This document shows positions 3,734-53,282 of a stretch of 64,000 nt of DNA, piece after piece. Under the pieces are notes generated by a model. It was not told where the DNA came from, made no database searches, and saw nothing but the letters and a program-made list of their open reading frames with translations. How positions within the stretch are numbered: the first letter of the stretch is position 1; each line of letters starts with the position of its first letter. The DNA is from Dictyostelium discoideum (taxonomy: Eukaryota), in assembly GCA_000004695.1 (NCBI GenBank), contig CM000152.2, positions 5,888,001 to 5,952,000 on the forward strand, read 5' to 3'. The translations under genes were made by a program, and so were the position numbers.

Positions 3734-5150
3734 TTTTTAAAAAATATATAAAAAAAAATAAAAAAAAAAAAAACTCAAAAAAAAAAAAAAATAAAAAAAA
3801 AAAAATTGATTACTTTTTTATTTTTTGTTAATCATTACATTAATCTTCTGTGTTAATTAAAATGACAAATTTTTCATAATCTCAATTTTAAAAAATTCTT
3901 AAAGTGGTTAAATATTCAATGGTAACAATTTTAATAACAAAAATTACCAAAATTAATAAATATTTATTTCAAATAATAAATTTAGATTTTTAAAAAATAA
4001 ACATTATTATAAAAAAAAAAAAAGTTTTTCCTGGTAAATTTGTAAAATAAAAATATTAAAAAAAACAGTTCATATGAAAAAAATATAACTAATGAAGTAA
4101 AAATAAAAAAATTTTTACATTACATAATTGTATAATGGCTAATTATTAAAATAAAAAAAGAAAAAAATCTCAATTTTAAAAAGAGTAGATTTATAAAGAA
4201 TAACTTTAATTGGTATTTTAACCTTTTTTAAAAAAAAAAATTGAAAAAAAAAAAAAAATCAAATCAAATCAAATCAACCTATTTAATTAACTTTAAAAAT
4301 TATAATGCACTAATCTCTAATATTGGAACTGTTCCAAGATTAAAATCTAATTCGAGATCATAAAATTCTTTTAAGGATCAAGGAATAAATTCTGTTTCGT
4401 GAAAATTCGGGAGGTGGCGCAGGTGAGAATTCTATTGGTATTGGTGCATTAGTTTAGTTAGTATAATAATGACTGTGGATGTAATTGGTAAAAAAAAAAA
4501 AAAAAAAAAAAAAATATATTTTAAAACTATTTTTTTTTTTTTTTTTTTGTATAAAAATGAATAAATCTTGATATTTAATATTTGTAAAAAAAAAAAAAAT
4601 AAAAAAAATATCTCAATCGTCCTAAAATTACAAAGAACCCTTTTTTTTTTTTTTTTTTTTTTTACTTAATTAATTATAATTTGTAAAATAAATAAATAAA
4701 TTTCAACTAATTATTAATTTACAAATTAACCAAAATCTAAATTAATGATATTAAAGATATTTTTTTTTTTTAAAAAAAAAAAAAAAGCTTCTATATTTCC
4801 TTTGTTATTAACAACAATTTATTTTTAAATTTTTATTTTTTTATTTTATTATTTATTTAATTTTCATTTTTTTATTTAATTTTTAATTTTTTATTTTTAA
4901 TTTTTTTCATTTGTGTGTGATTTACAAATTTGATTTATTGTCTTTGATTTTTAAGAAATTTTTAATTTTTTTATTTTTTAATTTAAAATTAAAAAATAAC
5001 CGACTTCATTGCAAACCAAAATCATACACCACTAACACTTAAGTATGCAATTATGTTTTTTTAAAAATAACCTCACTCAATTGTAATTGGTGGTGATGGA
5101 TAAAAAACAAAGAATCACCCTTGGGTATTTTTATTATATTTTTAAAAAAT

Positions 5151-9352: not shown

Positions 9353-10018
9353 TTAATTTATTATACAATTATTAATAGAATCACCACCACTATCAACATT
9401 TTTAATTTTTTTTATTTCAGAAATTTTAGGTGGAGGATAAGTATCCATAATTAATTGAGATAATTTTTGAAATATTAAATCAACATTTATATTTTCTTTT
9501 ACAGAAACATTATGAATGGATGGTATTGATAAAGAGTCACAAAATTCTTGAGGCTTTTTTAAATCAACAATAGTAGTAATCTTTGAATCATCTATAAGAT
9601 CACATTTATTTCCTACAATAAATAGTATTGGTTCAGGTGATGGATAAAGATTTGAAGTTTGATATGAATTTTTAATTTTTGAAATCCAATTTGATAGGTT
9701 ATTAAATGATTCTAAATTTGTAACATCATACATTATTATAAAACCATGTTGATGTTTTAAATAGTTTTCATAAAATAATTCTTTAAATTTGCACCCACCA
9801 TTTCCATCAAATATCATTAATTTCACTTTGACAATTTCGTTTGTTGATTGATTTTTCAATTCAATAATTTTATTTTTAATTTCAATTCCATGCCAAAGTT
9901 GTATTCCATTTTCTACAAACATACCATCACAATATCTACTCAATAAAAAAGATTTTCCACATTGATTATCTCCTACCAAAACAATATTTAATCGGTAATC
10001 ATGATCCATTTTAGCCAT
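9353..10018 (-). CDS. Ras-superfamily small GTPase (Rab-like), atypical
   Basis: G1 is GDNQCGKS, G4 is NKCD, G5 is SVK, and the C-terminus is CIIN (CaaX-like). G3 is degenerate: FDGNG in place of DTAGQ. Confidence 0.75.
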   Translation of the reverse strand: MAKMDHDYRLNIVLVGDNQCGKSFLLSRYCDGMFVENGIQLWHGIEIKNKIIELKNQSTNEIVKVKLMIFDGNGGCKFKELFYENYLKHQHGFIIMYDVTNLESFNNLSNWISKIKNSYQTSNLYPSPEPILFIVGNKCDLIDDSKITTIVDLKKPQEFCDSLSIPSIHNVSVKENINVDLIFQKLSQLIMDTYPPPKISEIKKIKNVDSGGDSINNCIIN

Positions 10019-10094: not shown

Positions 10095-10383
10095 GAAATA
10101 AATTAAAAGAAAATTTTAAAAGAAAAAAATTAGAAAATCTTGGTATAACTATTTTTATTAATTTAAATTAAATTTTTTTTAAAAAAAAAAATATCAACTT
10201 GCCATTTTTTTTTTTTCTTTAAAAAGGATGATTTTTTATTTTTTTATCCAATTCACATTTTCATTTTTTTTTTTTTAAAAGCCCAAAAAAATAAAATGGC
10301 TTTTTTTTTTCTTAAAAACCCAAAACAGTTCAATATGAAATATTAAAAAAATACCAGTATTACCCATTTGGTTTTCGATGACT

Positions 10384-10456
10384 TTTTTTTTTTTATTAAC
10401 ATCACTCAGTTTTCGATGACACCTTAGCAAAGTGTATTAACCATTTGTTTTTCGAT
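10384..10456 (+). repeat. Tandem partial copies of the tRNA-Ser 5' end plus its upstream flank (39-bp unit tttcgatgacaccttagcaaagtgtatta..), some abutting T-runs
   Basis: ttttcgatgac+T11, then ttttcgatgacaccttagcaaagtgtattaaccatttgtt, then the intact gene. Each unit contains the first 17 nt of the tRNA. Confidence 0.7.
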
Positions 10457-10566: not shown

Positions 10567-10577
10567 TGTTCGATTCC
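10567..10577 (+). promoter_or_regulatory. External B box (exB) downstream of tRNA-Ser A
   Basis: tgttcgattcc lies about 30 bp 3' of the tRNA. It resembles the internal B box GGTTCGAACC. This is an established feature of Dictyostelium tRNA genes. Confidence 0.6.
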
Positions 10578-10584
10578 GGATAAA

Positions 10585-11254
10585 TTGAATTACATACAAC
10601 CAATATTAACAAAAAACCAACCCTCTCAAACATTAAACACAAATAATATTTCACTACCACCAACACTCAAAGAAATCTACTCGACAATACTAAACAATCA
10701 CCAATGCAAATCAAAAGACTATATTGGCAAGAAATATTCAGATCTACTTCTTACTTCGCACCAACAATCAATACAACTATTATGGAAATACACATACGAC
10801 CAACTTTTTGTCAAAATTCAAAAACTAAAAGATCCAAAAGGCCGAGATACAATGCAAAGATTCCATGCTAGATGTCTTCCGATTAATCATCTACACAACA
10901 AAGTTTGCCCCATTTGCAACAATGAAATGAATAATGATCCCTATGGTCATTTGTTTTTCAATTGTCAGCACACAATCAACTTCATAAACCACGACAAATT
11001 AAAATATTTTATATATAAAAATTGCAATGGAAACAAAAACTGGTCACTAACAAAAAAGAATGGAGCATAAACACTAATGAACCAATTCCAACAATTACAC
11101 CACCAATTAATTATTAATTACCTAATCTAAAATAACATACTATTTTAAATTCACAAAAACTAAAAAACCTAAAATAAATAAATAAAAATAACATACTAAT
11201 TGTATACTACAATAGTTTATTTATATCAAAAAAAAAAAAAAAAAAAAAAAAAAA
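10585..11254 (+). mobile_element. 5'-truncated non-LTR retrotransposon fragment (TRE3-like, downstream of tRNA): ORF2 C-terminus, 3' UTR and poly(A)
   Basis: The ORF carries a Cys/His-rich C-terminal motif (CPICNNEMNNDPYGHLFFNCQHT) of the same type as the ORF2 C-termini of the other TRE copies in this window. An A27 tail at 11228-11254 follows it. The fragment sits immediately 3' of a tRNA gene. Confidence 0.7.
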
Positions 11255-11631: not shown

Positions 11632-13257
11632 TTATTTTTTTTTTAAAATTAATTTAATTTCATCTTTTGATAATTGATAAACTGGTTTAAAAGAAAAAGA
11701 TAAATCATCAGGTAATGAGCAAAAATCAGGGAATAATGGACCAGAGGAAATACCACGACGAGACATATCACAAGAGAATTGGCCAATACGAGGGAGAGCA
11801 AGAGTGATATTATTAATTTCAGTAGCAGACCATAATCTTTCAGAGATACCAATAGCTCTTGGCCAAACTCTGGCATCCCAATTGACGGTACTAACTTGTT
11901 CACCAAACATAGTAGCTTCACCACCTAAAATATTTTCAGCATTTGAAGTAATATTTAATCTTGGATCTGATGCATAGAAATCTTCCCAAGTATCTTGCCA
12001 TTCATAATGATAATGATTTCCAGTTGGTGATTGTCTATCTAAATAGAAAAAGAACGATGTTATAGTTTTATAACCAGCGGCTAGTACATCTCTTAGATCA
12101 TTAATATTTGTCCAAGTTTGAACCAAAGTAGTTTCTTTATCAAATTTAACACCATGTTGAAGTACATCATTCCAGGCGATTTTAGTACGATTAATTGATT
12201 TCAAAATTACATCTAATTGATCTTCAAAATATTGAAAAGCATCAGAAGTATTATAGTTATTAGTTTTCATCCATTTTTGAATTGAAGTATCATTGGCCCA
12301 ACAATCAATTACCAATTCATCACCACCAGTATGGAAATAACTATCTTGGAATAGAGGTGCAATCTCTGAGAAAAAGTTTTCAAGAAAACTATAAGTGTAT
12401 GGATTTGAACAATCTAATGGAATTGAACTTTGTGGATAGCCTGGACAATTGGATAACAGCTCTGGATAGCCTACACCCCATGATGCAGAATGGCCTGGAA
12501 CATCAAATTCAGGAATCACACGAATTCCATAGGTTTTAGCATAGGCAACCACCTCTAAAATATCATCATGTGTAATAATTGCACCAGGTCCAAGTAATGC
12601 TTCAGTTAACTTTGGATAGGTTTTCGATTCCACTGGGAATGCAACAGTATCTATTAAATGCCAATGCATAGTATTGAATTTATTATAACCCATCGAGTCA
12701 ATAATATGAAGTACCATATTCTTTGGAAGGAAATGACGGGCATTATCAACCAACAATCCTCTCCATTGATAGGTTGGATAGTCTACAACTTCAGCACATG
12801 TCAATGAGTAACTATTTTCTACAACATCATAAACTACCATTTGTTTGAATGTTTCTAAACCTCTCATTGCACCATAGATTGTATTGGCTTTTATTTGATA
12901 AGTGTCTTGATTCACTAATAAAAAGTAACTTTCATCAATACCCAATTCAAGTGTTTCATCATCACTTGCAATAATTAATGATAACTCGATATTTGAAGAG
13001 CTATCTTTTAAAACATTATTTGAAACAAATGGGAAAAATAAACTCTGATATCTTGAAATTGAAATACTTAATATTGTTGATTCAATATTACTTTTAATTG
13101 ATATTGATCCTACTGATAATGGAATATTACAACCAATCATTGTAACTTCTTGTGGATATGGTACTACATTTAATGGTTGTTCATTTGATGATTGTGATAA
13201 AACTTTAATTATTACAATTGAAAATATTAAAAAAATTGTTAAAAATTTATTTATCAT
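11632..13257 (-). CDS. Beta-N-acetylhexosaminidase, glycoside hydrolase family 20, with signal peptide
   Basis: Contains RVIPEFDVPGHSASWG and the catalytic FHTGGDE (H-x-G-G-D-E) motif. The N-terminus is hydrophobic. The 541-aa ORF is intron-less. Confidence 0.9.
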   Translation of the reverse strand: MINKFLTIFLIFSIVIIKVLSQSSNEQPLNVVPYPQEVTMIGCNIPLSVGSISIKSNIESTILSISISRYQSLFFPFVSNNVLKDSSSNIELSLIIASDDETLELGIDESYFLLVNQDTYQIKANTIYGAMRGLETFKQMVVYDVVENSYSLTCAEVVDYPTYQWRGLLVDNARHFLPKNMVLHIIDSMGYNKFNTMHWHLIDTVAFPVESKTYPKLTEALLGPGAIITHDDILEVVAYAKTYGIRVIPEFDVPGHSASWGVGYPELLSNCPGYPQSSIPLDCSNPYTYSFLENFFSEIAPLFQDSYFHTGGDELVIDCWANDTSIQKWMKTNNYNTSDAFQYFEDQLDVILKSINRTKIAWNDVLQHGVKFDKETTLVQTWTNINDLRDVLAAGYKTITSFFFYLDRQSPTGNHYHYEWQDTWEDFYASDPRLNITSNAENILGGEATMFGEQVSTVNWDARVWPRAIGISERLWSATEINNITLALPRIGQFSCDMSRRGISSGPLFPDFCSLPDDLSFSFKPVYQLSKDEIKLILKKK

Positions 13258-13784
13258 TTTTACTTTTCTTTTATTTAAAGTAAAATTGAATTGTTTTTTT
13301 AAAAATAAAAAAAAAAAAAAAATAAAAATAAAAAAAATAAAAATTAAAAAAATTAATTAAAAAAAAAAAAAATGATTTGGTTAAATTGAATTTTCAATCA
13401 AAAATTCTTTGAAAAAAAAAAAAAAAAAAAAATTAAAATGGAAATTTCTTTATTTTAATAATTTTTTAGATTTATTCTTTCTTAAGATAGAAAAAAAAAA
13501 AATCTAACAAAACTTTAAATGTTATATTTTATTTTTTATGGAAACAGAAATGTTGTGTTGTGAAAATTTTTATATCATAATTAGAAATTTGGATATTACT
13601 GAAATAAATAAATGATTTTTTTGGGATTAATTGTATAAAATTTTTTTTTTTTTTTTTGATTTTTTTAGGTAGTGTTTTTTTTTTTTTCTTCTATTTTTAT
13701 ATCTTCTCATGATTGGATTTATTCCTTCTTATAAATGGTTCAGTAAATCCGGAAGGAAATAATCTTGATTGGGCAAAAATCAGG

Positions 13785-13940
13785 TGCTTTAAAATTTTCA
13801 TAAAAGACACCTTTGCAAAGTGTATCACCCAAAAATTTTTCAATGACACCTTAACAAAGTGTATCACACAAATAATTTGTGTGTACAACTTATTAAAGTA
13901 TATTTCGATTACACCTTTACAAACTGTAATACCCAAAAAA
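13785..13940 (+). repeat. Degenerate cluster of tRNA-Ser 5'-end-like fragments (gacaccttWRcaaagtgtatcac..), with no intact tRNA
   Basis: Three divergent copies of the 39-bp tRNA-5'/flank unit lie immediately next to the 3' terminal module of the minus-strand TRE at 13941+. Confidence 0.6.
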
Positions 13941-14060
13941 TTTTCTGCGACAACATTTTTTTTGAATAGAATAACGCAATTTTTAGTTACTTCTTCTTGA
14001 GATATGACTCATTTTATTAATTTTATTATTAGATATTACAGGTGCCTTTTAAGGTTGTAT

Positions 14061-14102
<42 letters not shown>

Positions 14103-14862
14103 TTGGGGGGTGTAGAGTGTGTTTAGTGACGTAATATATTTGTTGAGGGTTGATGGTAGTGCTACTGTGTGTAGTGGTGAGTTCCAGTGTTTGCTAAATC
14201 TTTCGAGTTGTAGGGAGATGATGTTTTTAAATTATTTTATTTGTTCTTTGTTGGTTGCTTTTTTTTCTTGTCTGATTAGTTTCTATATGTTGTTTTTTGT
14301 TCTTTCCCAGGCTGCTGTTTGAGTTTTCTTTAGTTGTTTTCTTAAGTTTTTGAGTGTTGTGGATTTTCTTGTTTCTTCTTCTCCAGATGTTTTCGCAAAT
14401 AATGGCTATGGCGTTGGCTGTTAATGGAATGTCTAGTCTGTTGAAGATTTCTATTCCCCAATTGATTCTGGATCCTCCAGATTTTTCTTGAATGTAGTTG
14501 ATGCACTCTTGAGTTTCTTTAATGTGTGATTTGCATTTGAAGAAGATGTGTTCTGAGGTTTCCTGTTCGTTACACCAGATGCAAGGGGCGTTGTGGATCT
14601 TTGGAAGAGCTTTAAGAGCTAATCTCCAGAGGAGGTCTCTTCCTTTCAAGTTGACTATTTTCCTGATTTCTAGAAAAGGGAGAGTTGTTTTTTTAATTTC
14701 TTTCATGATTTGGGTCTGACCCGGAGTTGGGTTGAAAGAATCGTAATTTGGATATTGGTTTTCATGAGATCATTGTATATTGTTTTGAGGTTGGGGAGAA
14801 CTTCGTAATGGGGTTTGAACCATGATTCTGCGAGAACATAGGGAAGTGTATAACCTCAATAT
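13941..14862 (-). mobile_element. 5'-truncated TRE5-like non-LTR retrotransposon (ORF2 C-terminal Cys/His domain, 3' module with internal A-run)
   Basis: The ORF 14227..14706 (KGRDLLWRLALKALPKIHNAPCIWCNEQETSEHIFFKCKSH...) is paralogous to the copies at 17421..18809 and 49429... Poly(T) on the + strand at 14061-14098 is poly(A) on the element strand. The terminal module gaatagaataacgcaatttttagttacttcttcttgagata recurs at 16460-16510. Confidence 0.7.
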
Positions 14863-14870
14863 TTTTCCAT

Positions 14871-14951
14871 GACACCTTAGCAAAGTGGTTAATGCGGCGC
14901 CCTGCTAAGGCGTTCTCTTCGGAGGCGCAGGTTCGAACCCTGCAGGTGTCG
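14871..14951 (+). tRNA. tRNA-Ser (anticodon GCU), copy B
   Basis: Identical over its 81 nt to copy A. Confidence 0.9.
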
Positions 14952-14982
14952 AAATTTTTTATTCAATCAAACCTGAATAACA

Positions 14983-15030
14983 GGTTCGATTCATTCATAG
15001 GTAAAAAAAAAAAAAAGGTTCGATTCATTC
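14983..15030 (+). repeat. 14-bp direct duplication of the exB box (ggttcgattcattc) flanking an oligo(A)14: footprint of a TPRT event truncated to its tail
   Basis: Reads caGGTTCGATTCATTCatag-gtA14-GGTTCGATTCATTCtag, starting 32 bp after tRNA-Ser B. Confidence 0.55.
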
Positions 15031-15127
15031 TAGTATTAAAAATAATTAATAAACTCTTAACCAAATCTATTATTAATAGTTTTTAATAATAAAACGAAAA
15101 AAAAAAAAATTATATCTTTTATATAAA

Positions 15128-15179
<52 letters not shown>

Positions 15180-16068
15180 AATTAAAATATATAAGTTAAA
15201 TTAATATATGATTGTGGTGTTGAAATGAGACATTTAATGTAAAACAACACTTTTATTTAATTTATCTCCCACACCACACATTATTAATAATTTTTTTTTT
15301 TTTTTTTTTGTCAAACACAAAACGCATTAAAAACTATAATAATATTTTAATTTTATTTTAATAATAATTTAATTATATTTTCCCATTTGTTTTTGTATTT
15401 GATAGACAAAAACTTAATAGTAAAATTTTTCCTATGGGTTTTTGATAAGAAATATAATTTTTCATTTCATTTTTAAATCTTAAAATATAAAATATCTTAT
15501 CTAGTAGAAAAGATTAAAAATTAAAATACTAAAAAATAATAATAGTAAAAATAATAGTTATAATAGTACTCTATTATCTTCAACAAATAAAGATAATGAA
15601 GTTTGTACAACTACCAATTCAATAACAACTTTAGATGATAAAGCTTTTTATTTTAATAATTGCAATAGAAAGGCTGAAATATGTGTATTATTAAAACATC
15701 AATAACCACAGATGGTATATTAAATATTAGAGGAGAAGTTTTATTACCAAAATTTAAAAAAAAAAAATAAAAATAAAAAAAAAAAAGAAAAAAGAAATAG
15801 AAAAACAAAAATTTATAAATTAAAATTATTACTTCCGTAATATTTATTTCATTTTTTTTATTTATTTATTTAATAATTTTTTTTTTTTTTTTTTATTTTA
15901 TTTTATTTAATTTTTTTTTTTCGATTTGAGTAGGATTTATAAATAATTTGAATGTTGATGGATGATTTGTGGGGAGATAATAGTATAGAAAAAACAATCA
16001 AATATTTTTATTAGATTTATCTAATAGTTTCCAATTTAGAAATTTGTAATTGTTCTTGGATTCAACTC

Positions 16069-16128
<60 letters not shown>

Positions 16129-16321
16129 AAATTTGTTTTTTTGAATTATTATTTTTTTTTAAATTCCTAAAATTGAGACTCTCCAGTTACTCACCTCGAT
16201 CCAAATATGAACACTTTTGTTGTTTGTTTAAAACAAAACACACTTAAAAAAAAAAAAAAAAAAAAGGAAAAACAAAAAAAAAAAAAAAAAAAATAATTTT
16301 TAAAACAATTAGAAACCAAAT

Positions 16322-16444
16322 TAAACAACGACACCTTAGCAAAGTGTATTACCAATTGGTATTCAATGACACCTTAACAAAGTGTATCACCCATTTGGTT
16401 TTGGATGACACCTTAGCAAAGTGTATTACCCATTTGGTTTTCGA
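16322..16444 (+). repeat. Tandem array of about 3.5 copies of the 39-bp tRNA-Ser-5'/flank unit, with no intact tRNA
   Basis: Copies read gacaccttagcaaagtgtattaccaattggtattcaat, gacaccttaacaaagtgtatcacccatttggttttggat, and gacaccttagcaaagtgtattacccatttggttttcgat. The array ends gacac+T9 at the 3' end of the next element. Confidence 0.7.
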
Positions 16445-16550
16445 TGACACTTTTTTTTTGATTGGAATAACGCAATTTTTAGTTGCTTCTTCTTGAGATA
16501 GATCTCATTTTATTTTTAGATAGGTTTCAGGTGCCTTTGAAGGTGGTAGA

Positions 16551-16593
<43 letters not shown>

Positions 16594-17345
16594 TTAAATT
16601 TAAATTTTGTGTTGAGGGATGTGATGTATTTGTTGAGGTTGGATGGAAGTGTTATGTGTATTGGAGAGTTCCATTGTTTACTGAATTTTTGGAGATGTTT
16701 GGAGATGATGGATTTGAATTTCTTGATCTGTTCTTCGCTTTGTGCTTTTCTTTCTTGTCTGGTTAATTTGTAAATTGTGTTTTTGGTTCTTTCCCAGCTG
16801 CTGTTAGTGTTTTTTTAGTTCGTGGATTAATAACTCCTTCTTTAAATTTTTGAGAGTGATTCCTTCATAAACTTTTTTGTTTTTTCTTTTCCAAATGTTT
16901 TCGCATATTATTGCTATGGCATTGGCAGTTAGTGTAATATCGAGTTTGTTGAACACTTCTAATCCCAGAAGTGATTTTGGAGCTTCCACTTTTATCTTGG
17001 ATGTGATCTATACCATCTTGAGAGTTGCTGAGGTGTGATTTGCATTTGAAGAATATGTGTTCAGAGGTTTCAGGCTCGAGGCACCATACTTTGAAAAGTT
17101 ACCTCCCCAGATTCGATGATAGTATAGTAATCCCTCATTGCGGAGTTTTTAGTTGCGATACTTATTGGTCCGGTTATACATTGTTTTTTTTTTAATTGAG
17201 TTTTATCCACAATTTCGCTTATTTTTTGTAGGCATTTGTGTTGCTTAATATTTGTGGTGTTGTTTGTGATTTTCATTTTATTTTCTTTCTATTTTTTTTA
17301 TTTTTCTTTAAAAAGTTAAAAATCTGGAAATTTTCTGATTAACTT
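16445..17345 (-). mobile_element. Internally deleted TRE5-like element: 5' leader and ORF1 start (MKITNNTTNIKQHKCLQ) fused to the ORF2 C-terminal domain and 3' module
   Basis: The 5' end cttgggaacccaagttaatcagaaaatttccag matches the element 5' end at 50031. The ORF1 start at 17276 matches 50105. The distal ORF (16804..16989, LTANAIAIICENIW) matches ORF2 of copy B. The internal A-run is 16556-16588 and the terminal oligo(A) is 16445-16453. Confidence 0.65.
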
Positions 17346-17353
17346 GGGTTCCC

Positions 17354-17424
<71 letters not shown>

Positions 17425-18885
17425 TTATAGAAAGTACTGAGTGAATTATTGTATTTTTTGAGATGTTTCGGAAGTTCTATTGCGTGAAGAGGTGAGTTCC
17501 ATTGTCTGCTAAATTGTAATAGCTTTAGCGAGATTAGTGAGTCTAATTTATTTTGTTCTTCTGGCCGTTGCTTTGATTTGATTCTTAATGTTTTGTTTAT
17601 AACCGCTTGTGTCCTGTCCCATGCAGCTCTTTGTGTTTTAATCAGTTCACGTATGACTTGTTGTCTGTGAATTATTATTTCTTTTTCATCGTGAATGAGT
17701 TTATTTCTTTTGTGCCAGATTCTTTCGAATATAATAGCTATTAAATTGGCTACTAGTGCGATTTGTAGATGGTTTAAAATCTTCACATTCCAGGTGTGAG
17801 TGGTGTGTCCACACTTAGTTAGGGTGTAGTTGAATATTTCTTGTGTGTTTTTGATGTGGGCTTTGCAGTTGAAGAATATATGTTCTGAAGTCTCATCTTC
17901 CCCACACTGTTGGCATGGCATGTTGTATATTTTTGGTAATGCTTTCAGTGTGTATCTCCATAATAGATCTCTACCTTTCATGTTTATTATTTTTTTGATT
18001 TCTTTAAATGGAAGGTGTTTGCTATTAATTTTGGTCATTATTTCTTTTTGGCCAGGAGTTGGTATGAATTTGTTGTGTTCTGGAGATTGAGTTGTCATCA
18101 TATCCTCGTATATTTTTTTTAATTTTGGGAGGTGTTCGTAGTGTGTTTGTTTATTTTGTGGAGTTTTTAATTGGGTCCATGCTTGCTTGCATTGCCAGTG
18201 TAGTTGTAGTTGTAGTTGATTTTGTTTTGTTGTTGTTTTGTTGTTGTTGTTGTTTCTGAGTTCCTCTTCCCACAGTTTTATATATGAACTAGGAGTGTTA
18301 CTTACTCTTTGGTGGAGGTATCTTTCGAATAACCATGCTTTCTGTGCTAGTTCTCTTGTCTTCAGGTTCCATAAGTTTAGGCCACCATTGATATAGTTGT
18401 TTTGTCTTCTTTGTAGTGAAAGAGAGTTTTTAGATTTTGTGTTGAAAACGAATTTTACGATGTTATTTTCAATACTATTGTGTTGTGATGTGGTGTTGAT
18501 GTAAGTGTGGAACGTTAACTGAGATAGTGCATATGTTTTTGCCATTATGAGTCTGCCCATATAGGTTGATGAAGTTGAGTTCCATGTTACTAGTTTAGCT
18601 CTGATGTTGTCTGAGATTGTATTGATTTTGGATTTGATACCCTTATTGTTGAAGTCAAATCCGAGGTACCGTTCGTTTGATTTTATGACGGTGTATAGCG
18701 TTCTGGTGTTCCATTTGAAAGTGATACACGAGCATTTGGTTTGGTTTATTTTTGCGCTGGTTGCTTGGCAAAACTTCTTGATCCATTCATTCATGAGGAA
18801 ATGGTCCATAAAGTTGTATGCTATTGTTGCTGTGTCATCGGCGAACTGTAATATGTCATCGATGACAGCTTAAAAAAGTGTATTA
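17346..18885 (-). mobile_element. 5'-truncated TRE5-like element: reverse transcriptase from just before the FADD motif through the ORF2 C-terminus to poly(A)
   Basis: The reading frame begins AVIDDILQFADDTATIA (RT motif C). It continues into ORF 17421..18809 (ERYLGFDF...KGRDLLWRYTLKALPKIYNMPCQQCGEDETSEH). Poly(T) on the + strand at 17355-17423 is a 69-nt poly(A) tail. The proximal end lies about 20 bp upstream of tRNA-Ser C. Confidence 0.8.
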
Positions 18886-18902
18886 TTCATTTGGTTTCCG
18901 AT

Positions 18903-18983
18903 GACACCTTAGCAAAGTGGTTAATGCGGCGCCCTGCTAAGGCGTTCTCTTCGGAGGCGCAGGTTCGAACCCTGCAGGTGTCG
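18903..18983 (+). tRNA. tRNA-Ser (anticodon GCU), copy C
   Basis: Identical to copies A and B. A degenerate fragment of the 39-bp unit precedes it. An exB-like tgttcgattct follows at about 19013. The 3' flank is similar to that of copy A. Confidence 0.9.
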
Positions 18984-19137
18984 ATCTTTTAGTAAGTTAT
19001 ATATTAGATCAGATGTTCGATTCTGCGTAAATTAAATCAGGTTACACAAAATTATTAGTTCCATAGTAATAATTTTAATTGTTCCATTATTTTCTAATAC
19101 TACTGGCAATTGGAAACTTGGTACCATTGCTTGTAGT

Positions 19138-19320
19138 AGTTTTATTGATAGGTTTTGTAGTAGTAGTAGTAGTAGTAGTAGTTTTGTTTAGGTTGTTGAT
19201 TGTTGTATTGCTTGTTGGTAATTGATGTGTGGTTGTTGTTGGTGTGGTTGTTGTTTGTGTGGTTGTTATTGGTGTGGTTGTTATTGGTGTGGTTGTTGAT
19301 GCATTAGTTGTTGGTGGAGT
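19138..19320 (+). repeat. G/T-rich minisatellite: (GTA)9, then 4-5 copies of about 24 bp ggtgtggttgttgttRgt
   Basis: Read directly from the sequence. It is encoded as poly-Val in ORF 19229..19525. Confidence 0.7.
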
Positions 19321-19525
19321 TGATGGTATTGATTTAGTCTTTAAGGATTACAATCTTCCACCAATTCCTATCAGTGTCATCCCAAGAAACTATTTCGAAA
19401 CTGTCAAAGAATGGCTCGATTCATTCAATATTAAATTTTATCAATCTGAACGTAATTACAATTGGAAGAGAATTATGGATACAATCAAAAGTGATGTAAA
19501 GAAATTCCATGACGATGGTGTTTAG
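19229..19525 (+). CDS. Possible exon of a hypothetical gene; the conserved-looking C-terminal 60 aa follow the repeat-encoded poly-Val
   Basis: The distal part of the ORF (DYNLPPIPISVIPRNYFETVKEWLDSFNIKFYQSERNYNWKRIMDTIK) is non-repetitive. No homologue recognised, and the start is uncertain. Confidence 0.2.
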   Translation: MVVVGVVVVCVVVIGVVVIGVVVDALVVGGVDGIDLVFKDYNLPPIPISVIPRNYFETVKEWLDSFNIKFYQSERNYNWKRIMDTIKSDVKKFHDDGV

Positions 19526-50342: not shown

Positions 50343-50424
50343 AGTAAACTAACCCCTCTTTTAGAGACCCTGTAAAAAAAAAAAAAAAAAAAAACTAAAA
50401 ATAAAATGAGATCTAGCATCTCAA

Positions 50425-50612
50425 GGAGAAGCAACTTTTTTTTTTTTTTACCTAAAAGCGGTGTATTGTTATATTTTATTACATTTTTAAATTTTTAGAT
50501 TTTAAATTTTTAAATTTTTATATTAAGGAGAAGCAACTATTTTTTTTTTTTTACCTAAAAGCGGTGTAGGAGAAGCAACTTTTTTTTTTTTTTACCTGTG
50601 ATCAGACCTTCA
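50425..50612 (+). repeat. Composite block (ggagaagcaact-T13-acctaaaagcggtgtattgttatattttattacatttttaaatttttagattttaaatttttaaatttttatatt .. T14-acctgtgatcagaccttca) repeated at 52246..52432
   Basis: Two copies in the same orientation, about 187 bp each at roughly 90% identity, flank the TRE3-like element 50704..52236. Within each block, the short modules ggagaagcaact and oligo(T)-acctaaaagcggtgta recur. Confidence 0.75.
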
Positions 50613-50692
50613 AGGAATGTCCTTGTGTCTTTTCGGCGGTGTTTGTTAAACGATTTTATTTTTATTATTCAATTGTATTAAATTTTTTAAAC

Positions 50693-50703
<11 letters not shown>

Positions 50704-50740
<37 letters not shown>

Positions 50741-52236
50741 ACTACTTAAATTTGAAGAGGGTTCGGAAATGCTGGGGTTTGCCAGGCTTTGTTGAATTTG
50801 TATTTGTGAAGATCTTGATTGGTGTTTTTTAGTATTGCTTCGTCGTGTTTGATTTTCTTTAGTGTGATGAATTTTTCAGTTTCGATGAGATTTAGTAATT
50901 CTGTTTCTATGACCTTTTGCTCGAATTTTGGCTCTGGTTTGCTTTCATCAGTGTTGAACAATTTGTGACAGATTATCTTCCATAATTGGTGTGCTATTAT
51001 TCCTATGAGATTGGGGAAGATTCTCTCAGTTCTGTTGTATTTTGATATGTCTAAGGTATCCATTGACCATCTGTGGATTTTGATGAATGATAATTTGTTA
51101 ACTGTTGATATGATGGTTTTTTCAATATCTAGGATATCTTGGCATAGAGTGAAGAGGTGAGAATAAGGGTCTCTGAATAGGTGGCCACAGATCTTGCATC
51201 TGGTGTCTCTTTCGTGGTTGATACCTGGAAGTGATCTTGAGAAGAATCTGAAGAGGGTGTTTCTACCTTTTTGGTGAGAAATGCTGTTGATGTTTATGAA
51301 TACTTTGGGTATTGCTGTGTTGTATCTCACCGCCCATAACTTCTGCCATTCTGTTCTTCTTGGTGTTGGGTGTCTGTCTTTGATCATGAGTTCGTAAATT
51401 TCTTTCAGTTTTAGTGGTTCATCATTGTCGTTTCTTATACAGTCTGGAAGTTCATTTATCTTTGGATGATTTTGGTAAAATTTGACTCTGAATACACCCC
51501 AGTGTCTGCACATATCGTTGAGGGTTGAAGTGTGGGCTTTTTTCTACTTAATTGCTCCATGTACCATTCTTGTAAAGTATTGTTGTTGTTGTTGTAGTTG
51601 TTATGGAGTAGCCTGTTCATGTACCAGATTTTGAATGCTATATGTCTTAGTTCTATATCCCATAATTTTATGCCTCCTTCTTTCCAATCTGCATATGCTC
51701 TGTCTATTTTCATCATAGTTTTGTATTTTCTCTCTTCTGTATATGTATTCTTAACTGAGGAGAATAAGAACCATCTGGTCATGTTATTTATTTCCTCAAT
51801 TTGTTCTTCATTTAGATTATCCATGTATTGATGGTATGTTAATTTGGATAGAACGTATGTTTTGAGAATTGTCATCTTTGCCTTCATCGTTATTGCTTGT
51901 GATTTCCATTTTATTAGATTGTTTTTCATTTCTTGGATTAAAGTGTTGTATTTTGAATTTAAACCTGTTTTGGTGAAATTGAGGCCAAGATATCTTTCTG
52001 GGACTGTACTCTCTTGGAATGGTAGATCGTGTGGTTTATCTCCTATTGCCATCATTACTGTTTTCTCTTTGTTTAACGATGATGATGTTGCTGAGCAGTA
52101 CTTTTGGATTTTAGTATTAATTTTCATTAGTTCTTCTGTGGAGTTTGTAAAGGTTGCTATGTCGTCAGCAAATGCAGTGAGTTTTAATGATTTGGAATTT
52201 GGTAGAGTGAAGCCTTTGATTGTATTATCATTGTAG
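50704..52236 (-). mobile_element. 5'-truncated TRE3-like non-LTR retrotransposon (RT C-terminal half from the FADD motif, Cys/His-rich ORF2 end, 42-nt poly(A)), 75-270 bp downstream of tRNA-Val
   Basis: The frame begins ..LKLTAFADDIATFTNS (RT motif C), then MKINTKIQ...ERYLGLNF... (ORF 51456..52127). The second ORF 50746..51513 ends with RCKICGHLFRDPYSHLFTLCQ. Poly(T) on the + strand is at 50704-50745. This lineage differs from the TRE5-like copies and matches the downstream-of-tRNA preference of TRE3. Confidence 0.75.
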
Positions 52237-52245
52237 GAGAAGCAA

Positions 52246-52432
52246 CTAATAATTGCGTTATCTTTTTTTTTTTTTTACCTAAAAGCGGTATATTGTTATA
52301 TTTTATTACATTTTTAAATTTTTAGATTTTTAAATTTTTAAATTTTTATATTGTTATATGTTGATATTTTTGGTTATATTATTATAATTGCGTTATCCAA
52401 TTTTTTTTTTTTTACCTGTGATCAGACCTTCA
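52246..52432 (+). repeat. Second copy of the composite block (see 50425..50612)
   Basis: It abuts the truncated 5' end of the TRE3-like element and lies about 74 bp 3' of tRNA-Val. Confidence 0.75.
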
Positions 52433-52505
52433 TGCGTTATCCAATTCAAAAAAAAAAAAAAATATAGGTTTTTTAAATGTAAATTTAAATGAAAAATATT
52501 AGTTT

Positions 52506-52579
52506 GTATTCAGAGCGGGAATCGAACCCACGACCTAATCCGTGTTAAGGATTCGTGATAACCGACTACACCATCCGAA
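52506..52579 (-). tRNA. tRNA-Val (anticodon AAC)
   Basis: It is collinear with eukaryotic tRNA-Val(AAC): GTTCGGA-TGG-TGTAGTCGGTTATCACG-AATCCTTAACACGGATT-AGGTC-GTGGGTTCGATTCCCGC-TCTGAAT-A. The acceptor stem has two G.U pairs. Confidence 0.8.
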
Positions 52580-53282
52580 CTAATCGATATTTTTGAAAAA
52601 ATTTAGCTTGTACCGGTTTTTTAAAAACAAGGTTTAATAATCAAAGATCAAATAATAAACGAACTTAAAAAGAAGCAGCATGGGACAAAGCAAAATCTAA
52701 CATCAACAAACTAATTAGACAACGAACCAACATTCAATTCCGTCAACACACTTTTTAGATAAAAAAAAATAAAAAAATAAAAAAAAAAAAAATAATAATA
52801 AAATTTTAATAAAATTATCAAATGTACTTGTCCAATTCAAAAAAGCTAGATAAATCATTGGAGGAGATTTGTTTTGTGAAAAATGTAAATTGTGGGGTGA
52901 AGACTTATTAATAAAAAACATTTTCTTATAATCTTAAAGCAATTCAAAGATCTTCTCCAGCATTTTATTCTACTATATAATACTAACTGTGACCCTTGGT
53001 CAGAATTACTATAAATAAATGATAAAATTAAAAGTAAAACTAATAGGAACCATAATGGACTTAATATGGTATATATTAATACAAAACTTTTTAAAAACAA
53101 AGTAACAATAAAAATTATTTTTTTATTTTTTTTTTTTTTGTTTTTTTTTAATATTTTTTTTATTTATTTAATATCTAGTGATGGAAAAAAAAAAGACCTT
53201 TTTCATATAAAATATTTATATAATATTATAATTTTTTTTAATTTTTTTTTTTTTTTTTTATAAAAAGTCGAGTAGTAAATGT

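Follow-up and report, generated by a model that had tools for sequence, protein, structure and literature searches.

A probable near-empty TRE3-type insertion that duplicated the external B box of a tRNA-Ser gene in Dictyostelium discoideum

The region downstream of tRNA-Ser(GCU) copy B (Ser B) of Dictyostelium discoideum contains two identical copies of an external B box (exB), separated by six bases and a run of 14 A residues. This structure is very probably a near-empty, 5′-truncated insertion of a TRE3-type retrotransposon that duplicated the exB as part of its target-site duplication (TSD). So read, the insert is a micro-copy that was previously unannotatable, produced by a known element family through a known mechanism. 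Only 4-5 nt of the element are left, which makes homology by alignment impossible; the assignment therefore rests on the association of a terminal AGGT with the oligo(A) tail, the TSD and the genomic context.

TRE3 elements are tRNA-gene-targeted, APE-type non-LTR retrotransposons of D. discoideum and comprise the subfamilies TRE3-A to TRE3-D. They integrate in the transcriptional orientation of the tRNA gene, 40-150 bp downstream of it, and end in oligo(A) (PMC5911963). The distances observed between element and tRNA gene are 14-228 bp for TRE3-A, 34-188 bp for TRE3-B, 14-305 bp for TRE3-C and 49-285 bp for TRE3-D (PMC5006619, Table 1).

Structure of the insertion downstream of tRNA-Ser(GCU) B

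The analysed window, i.e., the whole stretch of 64,000 nucleotides (64 kb), derives from D. discoideum, and the gene neighbouring the tRNA genes is the β-hexosaminidase gene DDB_G0282539. Three tRNA-Ser(GCU) genes (Ser A, Ser B and Ser C) are spaced about 4.2 kb apart and interleaved with fragments of TRE-type non-LTR retrotransposons. Ser B and Ser C are preceded by TRE5-like copies in a head-to-head arrangement, and a TRE3 copy follows the exB of Ser A in the tRNA's orientation, ending in ...TTTATATC(A)27 at 11228-11254.

Tandem arrays with a period of about 39 bp are found upstream of each tRNA-Ser(GCU) gene (window positions 10371-10455, 13800-13990 and 16330-16500) and also in the related loci L003 and L004 described below. 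Each array unit combines a copy of the upstream flank with roughly the first 17 nt of the tRNA and contains the A-box-like TAGCAAAGTG (TTTTCGATGACACCTTAGCAAAGTGtatta...). TRE5 insertions separated the Ser B and Ser C arrays from their genes, and the arrays are kept in strains that are ~7-8% diverged.

On the + strand, tRNA-Ser(GCU) B is followed by T6, ...AATAACA, GGTTCGATTCATTC, ATAGGT, A14, a second GGTTCGATTCATTC and TAGTATT... (Table 1). The T6 run is presumably the Pol III terminator, and the first exB lies beyond it at +31/32, as in other tRNA genes. The two copies of GGTTCGATTCATTC form an exact direct repeat of 14 nt, or of 15 nt if the ambiguous preceding A is counted (14982-14996 and 15016-15030). 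The first copy begins 31 nt past the tRNA end predicted by ARAGORN, and the insert begins at +45. The ARAGORN bounds of the tRNA-Ser genes seem to be one base too wide at each end, and offsets from the tRNA end may accordingly be off by 1; for Ser B, the 7-bp acceptor stem GACACCT/AGGTGTC plus the discriminator G gives 14871-14951. Within this 1-nt difference between ARAGORN and the acceptor stem, the distance of 32 bp given in the initial annotation is right.

Altogether, the insertion adds 34 bases, made up of the exB repeat, ATAGGT and A14. The initial annotation had described the repeat as flanking only an oligo(A); the exact repeat and the A14 are both present, but the spacer is ATAGGT plus A14 and not oligo(A) alone. 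With six nucleotides and a tail, the insert has no coding capacity (no ORF1 or ORF2), as expected for an extremely 5′-truncated copy, and it is an integration remnant rather than an element.

Table 1. Features at tRNA-Ser(GCU) B, at its paralogs and at the tRNA-Val(AAC) comparator locus, in window coordinates
Feature	Position	Strand	Basis or details
tRNA-Ser(GCU) copy B, targeted gene	14870..14952	+	ARAGORN; acceptor-stem pairing suggests 14871-14951
Internal B box GGTTCGAACCC of tRNA-Ser B	14930..14940	+	Sequence; GTTCRANNC motif at 14931-14939
T6 run right behind tRNA-Ser B, probable Pol III terminator (exB further out)	14955..14960	+	
TSD copy 1: exB GGTTCGATTC + ATTC	14983..14996	+	Ancestral offset +31; may include A14982
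ATAGGT, putative residual retroelement 3′ end	14997..15002	+	Sequence; match to the tRNA-Val TRE3-type 3′ termini
A14 tail, on the side distal to the tRNA	15003..15016	+	Sequence; tails of the siblings have 13-14 A
TSD copy 2: second, displaced exB	15017..15030	+	Sequence, motif scan; about +65
Single exB of paralog tRNA-Ser A, GTTCGATTC	10568..10576	+	Offset +30
Single exB of paralog tRNA-Ser C, GTTCGATTC	19015..19023	+	Offset +31
tRNA-Val(AAC), comparator target	52506..52580	-	Five AGGT-type insertions downstream
V1	52390..52446	-	TSD (AA)TTGGATAACGC(A), 52444-52434 / 52400-52390; 19-nt insert TGAAGGTCTGATCACAGGT, 52432-52414; A13, 52413-52401
V2	52249..52397	-	TSD GATAACGCAATTAT, 52397-52384 / 52262-52249; 107-nt insert ending ...ACCGCTTTTAGGT; A14, 52276-52263
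V3	50568..52247	-	TSD AGTTGCTTCTCCT, 52247-52235 / 50580-50568; 1641-nt insert, 52234-50594, ending ...GAAGGTCTGATCACAGGT; A13-14, 50580-50593
V4	50526..50580	-	TSD of V3, AGTTGCTTCTCCT; 15-nt insert ACACCGCTTTTAGGT, 50567-50553; A13, 50552-50540
V5	50424..50538	-	TSD of V3, AGTTGCTTCTCCT; 76-nt insert ending ...ACACCGCTTTTAGGT, 50525-50450; A14, 50449-50436

A pattern search for GGTTCGATTCATTC with at most two mismatches returned three matches in the window, compared with 0.33 expected, and none of 200 windows simulated with a Markov-1 model contained a direct repeat of at least 14 nt with at least five G/C within 60 nt. A 13/14 match to the duplicated 14-mer, GGCTCGATTCATTC at 19413-19426, lies inside an ORF ~430 bp downstream of tRNA-Ser C and is probably due to chance.

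The Ser B structure is base-for-base the same in the independent assembly GCA_054883475.1 (a chromosome-scale record of 6.43 Mb from the same lineage) and is thus not an assembly artefact. The tRNA-Val locus is likewise identical in this assembly. An exact-protein look-up of DDB_G0282539 retrieved only this same-lineage assembly, in which the insertion is present.

A terminal AGGT and a tail of 13-14 A are shared with TRE3-type copies

Runs of at least 10 A are very common in the window (189 in 64 kb), so the A14 carries no meaning by itself. AGGT stands before six of the 189 runs. Each of these six comprises 13-14 A, is flanked by a TSD and is found downstream of, and co-oriented with, a tRNA gene. 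AGGT precedes none of the other 183 runs of the window and none of the 284 runs in loci L002-L005 (0/467 together), and its background rate before an A-run is ~0.3%.

Besides the Ser B insert, the six copies comprise the five insertions V1-V5 downstream of tRNA-Val(AAC), which are nested or adjacent, all co-oriented with the tRNA gene and flanked by TSDs of 11-14 bp. V3 is a 5′-truncated TRE3-type element that retains the end of the RVT_1 domain (33.1 bits, cut-off 29.6) and the C-terminal part of ORF2, and V1 is identical to the final 19 nt of V3. The insert lengths of the six AGGT-type copies form a graded series of 6, 15, 19, 76, 107 and 1641 nt, in which the Ser B insert is the shortest; the TSDs of the series, Ser B included, measure 11-15 bp.

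The (T)AGGT of the Ser B insert agrees with the TRE3-type termini ...CTTTTAGGT and ...ATCACAGGT at the tRNA-Val locus over 4-5 nt. Either the sixth base of ATAGGT (A) or the fifth (T, compared with C in the ...CACAGGT type) mismatches these 3′ ends, and the leading A or AT is probably non-templated. The initial annotation had read the structure as a retrotransposition event truncated to its poly(A) tail. Its reading as a retrotransposition footprint is borne out by the five tRNA-Val inserts, with their AGGT, 13-14 A and similar TSDs, and agrees with published TRE3 biology (PMC5911963, PMC5006619). The truncation is indeed severe, but 4-5 templated bases, (T)AGGT, are kept in addition to the tail, together with one or two probably non-templated ones.

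In a screen of all A-runs of the window for direct repeats with one copy immediately at the 3′ end of the run and another upstream, the Ser B insert and the tRNA-Val sites were the only short-insert matches (6 to ~120 nt before the A-run). The same screen gave matches 1.2-6 kb apart, two of which are tRNA-Val events and three of which are matches of 10 to 20 nt. A search of the window for close repeats (at least 12 nt, at least four G/C, at most 80 nt apart) returned only Ser B, V1 and V4 as two-copy repeats outside coding regions and tandem arrays, and each of their spacers ends in AGGT plus A13-14.

Other 3′ ends were compared as well. No match to ATAGGT was found among the ends of the TRE copies beside the three tRNA-Ser genes; it matches solely at the tRNA-Val locus. 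The TRE3 copies at Ser A, at L002 (tRNA-Gly(GCC)) and at L007 (tRNA-Ala) end in ...TTTATATC(A)n, and the TRE5-type copies in ...CCCCAACTTT(A)n or ...TTTCTATAAAT(A)n. Three A-runs preceded by GGT, at 4490, 8566 and 31326, have neither a TSD nor a tRNA context and were treated as unrelated. A scan of the TRE3 loci L002 and L007 yielded no further AGGT-type stubs. As to the subfamily, all protein matches were annotated as 'hypothetical protein', and the literature search returned nothing on the 3′ ends of TRE3-B, -C and -D.

The tails of all six AGGT-type copies contain 13-14 A, while other TRE tails are longer and variable, with A27 and A20 in TATATC-type TRE3 copies and about 35 or more A in TRE5-type copies. 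Such uniformity points either to a tail that is templated or limited in length or to a very recent burst.

A further feature of the tRNA-Val locus is the 13-14-nt target (T)AGTTGCTTCTCCT, about +79 from the tRNA gene, which is present four times and separates V3, V4 and V5 (window 50424-52248, - strand). Four copies around three independent inserts imply that an identical pair of staggered nicks was used three times. The reused target sits within the 3′ end of a TRE5-A-like copy (...TAATAATTGCGTTATCCAATTC(A)15).

External B boxes in paralogous and orthologous loci

Both exB copies at Ser B fit the B-box motif GTTCRANNC, which was adopted for the scan from PMC5391098, as GTTCGATTC at 14984-14992 and 15018-15026. 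A B-box-like GTTCRANNC is located 30-37 nt past the 3′ end of five of the six tRNA genes in the window, and two copies are seen only at Ser B. The offsets are +30 to +32 in Ser A, Ser C and tRNA-Leu and +37 in tRNA-Thr, and the exB of the L002 tRNA-Gly gene likewise falls within the +30 to +37 range. The bases after the exB core vary among the paralogs (ATTC in Ser B, CGGA in Ser A, TGCG in Ser C). Since the Ser B repeat includes these paralog-variable bases, the second box was copied from the first and is not an independently maintained motif.

With the hexosaminidase gene as an anchor, syntenic regions (loci L003-L005) were fetched from three diverged assemblies, two labelled 'D. discoideum' and one 'D. 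cf. discoideum'. Their hexosaminidase proteins share 97%, 97% ('D. discoideum') and 96% ('D. cf. discoideum') identity with DDB_G0282539; DNA identity is 91-93% over the hexosaminidase gene block and ~73-76% in the intergenic region downstream of tRNA-Ser B. In all three, the tRNA-Ser gene upstream of hexosaminidase has one exB, 31 nt past the tRNA, which is the offset of copy 1 at Ser B. In L003 and L004, the region further downstream aligns to window positions 15071-15454. The motif scan bears out the single exB that the initial annotation had reported for copies A and C, and a duplicated exB without an A-run, which it had named as the mark of simple slippage, is present in none of Ser A, Ser C and L003-L005, each of which has one exB. 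No exact empty site was found among these genomes: the same-lineage assembly is filled, and the flanks in the strains ~7-8% diverged are not alignable base for base.

A long run of A at 15134-15178, located 182 nt past tRNA-Ser B, was considered as the tail of a second truncated TRE3 copy and ruled out. Its surroundings occur with ~A20 at the orthologous place in L003, and its flank aligns in L004. The run has 45 A in the window, 34 A in the second assembly and ~20 A in L003; it is a length-polymorphic homopolymer and not a TRE tail.

The tRNA-Ser genes upstream of hexosaminidase also differ in number (window 13257-19300 compared): the AX4 lineage has two (B and C), L003-L005 have one. This single gene has Ser C-like immediate flanks, and in L003 and L004 its distant downstream flank is Ser B-like. 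The 30-nt spacer between tRNA and exB at Ser B is unlike that of every other copy. The layout in AX4 suggests a lineage-specific rearrangement, duplication or gene conversion.

Proposed origin and alternative explanations

The structure at Ser B very probably arose from abortive target-primed integration of a TRE3-type element. The endonuclease of the element would nick the bottom strand at the 5′ edge of the exB, between 14981/14982 and 14983, and the 3′-OH thus released would serve as the primer for cDNA on the poly(A) tail of an RNA of the element that ends in ...AGGT(A)n. Reverse transcription would stop nearly at once, when only the tail and the terminal 4-5 nt of the 3′ UTR had been copied. 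The top strand would be cut 14-15 bp downstream, after 14996, and the cDNA would be joined with one or two extra bases. Gap repair or fill-in would then generate a TSD of 14-15 bp that holds the whole exB, with exB - ATAGGT - A14 - exB as the product. Given this TSD model, the staggered nicks bracket the exB, so it is wholly inside the TSD and became duplicated; the initial annotation's placement of an integration nick at the exB is supported to this extent.

This scheme builds on what is observed directly, namely the exact repeat, an AGGT plus A14 that bona fide TRE3-type copies also carry, the offset from the tRNA gene and the orientation relative to it, and the presence of just one exB in the paralogs and orthologs. 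We infer the order of the nicks, with the bottom strand cut first at the 5′ edge of TSD copy 1; early termination, as opposed to a later deletion, and membership in a TRE3 subfamily are presumed.

A later deletion would require that a longer or full-length TRE3-type copy had integrated and later lost its whole sequence from the boundary with TSD copy 1 up to the last 6 nt. The end product would look alike, and internal deletions do occur in TRE copies of the region, for example in the Ser A copy as compared with the L002 copy. Such a deletion must, however, begin exactly at the 5′ junction and spare TSD copy 1, and three separate precise deletions would be needed for the stubs of 6, 15 and 19 nt, whereas the graded series from 6 to 1641 nt is the outcome to be expected of 5′ truncation during integration. 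A secondary deletion is therefore improbable.

The TRE proteins could also have mobilised another polyadenylated cellular RNA in trans, in which case ATAGGT would represent the terminus of some unrelated mRNA. L1 is a known case of such trans-mobilisation (PMC2912911), and six bases are insufficient to identify a template. Yet AGGT, expected by chance before an A-run at only the background rate given above, fits both TRE3-type 3′ ends in the window, and the A14 tail matches the 13-14 A of the tRNA-Val TRE3-type copies, which makes an origin from an unrelated RNA very improbable.

Replication slippage or a tandem duplication of 34 bp, with the A-run as ordinary AT-rich intergenic sequence, was considered in view of the abundance of A-runs, a 34-nt period that the repeat search reports at 74% identity, and the tandem 39-bp repeats upstream of these tRNA genes. 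It was rejected as highly improbable. Just 14-15 nt are duplicated, and these are identical, while the 20 nt that follow each copy agree at 10/20 positions, as expected by chance in A-rich sequence. Slippage would not separate the copies by 20 nt of unrelated sequence, and the AGGT plus A14 shared with the TSD-flanked tRNA-Val inserts would remain unaccounted for.

Independent selection of the second exB as a functional extra TFIIIC site has a negligible probability: B-box motifs are functional TFIIIC sites (PMC5911963) and most tRNA genes of the window have an exB, but the identity of the two boxes reaches into non-conserved flanking bases, two boxes occur in no paralog (Ser A, Ser C) or ortholog (L003-L005), and the spacer bears a retroelement signature.

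Nick positions relative to the B boxes

If TSD copy 1 marks the first nick at Ser B, its offset from the tRNA end is +31, compared with +42 for the TRE3 copy at the L002 tRNA-Gly gene and +60, +65 and +79 (three times) at tRNA-Val. The first nicks are 53-101 nt away from the internal B box; at genes with an exB, their distance to it is 0 or 12 nt. The Ser B offset (53 nt from the internal B box) is shorter than that of the other events (+42 to +79) and than the usual ~100 bp, and lies within the published ranges.

At L002, the tRNA-Gly(GCC) gene is followed by a TRE3 copy ending in ...TTTATATC(A)n, with the TSD TTCTACGAA starting 2 nt past the exB, at +42 (L002 positions 9431-9451 and 10773-10781). 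This is another integration hard against an exB. A second TRE3-like copy is located in tandem behind this TRE3.

TRE3 is said to take either the internal B box or the exB as reference, and positioning by TFIIIC has already been proposed in the literature (PMC5911963). The initial annotation had suggested that the Ser B insertion fits this idea, but the claim was not upheld, as it relies on one event, the offsets range from +31 to +79 without a fixed register, and the idea was already published. No fixed nick register is seen among the resolved events, and a single event at an exB neither supports nor refutes positioning by TFIIIC.

Comparison with other retrotransposons

The Ser B insert resembles TRE3 in being located downstream of the tRNA gene, co-oriented with it and 5′-truncated, with an oligo(A) on the far side, and a TSD in the range of ~11-16 bp; its terminal (T)AGGT plus A14 is like that of two TRE3-type 3′ ends in the window, which have A13-14. 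The start of the TSD at +31 and of the insert at +45 fall within the observed range of 14-305 bp (PMC5911963, PMC5006619). The orientation is that of TRE3, since A14 follows ATAGGT on the tRNA strand, and TRE3 copies are likewise co-oriented with the tRNA at Ser A, the L002 tRNA-Gly, the L007 tRNA-Ala and tRNA-Val. The A14 and the exact repeat of 14-15 bp correspond to the oligo(A) and variable-length TSD of TRE3. Unlike other TRE3 copies, the insert has only six non-A bases, no ORF and nothing annotatable by a homology search; its TSD is the exB itself, nearer to the tRNA than usual, and the abundant copy type (Ser A, L002, L007) ends in ...TTTATATC(A)n instead.

L1 targets are chosen by the endonuclease consensus TTTT/AA anywhere in the genome. 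The Ser B target, in contrast, is set by the closeness of a Pol III gene; its primer end, ...GAACC(T), has hardly any complementarity to poly(A). Severely 5′-truncated mammalian LINE-1 insertions, produced by target-primed reverse transcription, share with the Ser B insert the TSD, the poly(A), the 5′ truncation and the extra or microhomologous bases at the 5′ junction (PMC2912911).

For TRE5-A, a further member of the TRE family, TSDs and frequent non-templated bases at the 5′ junction were shown experimentally in de novo integrations (PMC5391098), and the TRE5-A copy in L002 has a 14-bp TSD. TRE5 elements differ in that their integration sites lie ~47 bp upstream of tRNA genes and their orientation is opposite, whereas the Ser B insert is downstream and co-oriented.

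Skipper-2 is an LTR element that is integrated by an integrase, makes short TSDs and is not known to carry a poly(A) tail, which the 14-bp TSD and A14 tail of the Ser B insert do not fit. It shares with the insert the general region downstream of tRNA genes: this LTR retrotransposon (DGLT-P) is located 8-23 bp downstream of D. discoideum tRNA genes (PMC5006619).

Implications for TRE3 integration and Pol III gene flanks

Taken alone, the Ser B locus confirms known biology without changing it. What makes it noteworthy is that the TSD is a Pol III control element, so that the tRNA gene now has two exB boxes spaced by 34 bp. The stub records both integration nicks at single-base resolution without the element itself being needed, and these nicks bracket and duplicated a putative TFIIIC site. 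The empty allele is predicted to read ...AACAGGTTCGATTCATTCTAGTATT..., and filled and empty alleles would differ by 34 bp.

The targeting experiments cited in the reviews PMC5006619 and PMC5911963 concern TRE5-A, and TRE3 targeting is far less studied. Stubs seem to be recurrent for AGGT-type elements, and the AGGT plus A13-14 signature makes them findable. A tentative extension, which we consider possible though rather doubtful, is that abortive insertions, each comprising a tail and a handful of bases, are a routine product of TRE3-type elements of the AGGT(A)13-14 type and escape homology-based annotation. If this were true, micro-insertions would be common near the ~400 tRNA genes of D. 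discoideum and would allow the nick sites of TRE3 to be mapped at nucleotide resolution relative to the B and exB boxes. They would also reveal nick sites that are very precise and reusable, as illustrated by the 13-nt TSD used three times at tRNA-Val, and would constitute a mechanism that duplicates or moves Pol III control elements and makes extra TFIIIC sites. Many such stubs, if present, would provide a natural map of integration and a rate for the remodelling of Pol III gene flanks by retrotransposition.
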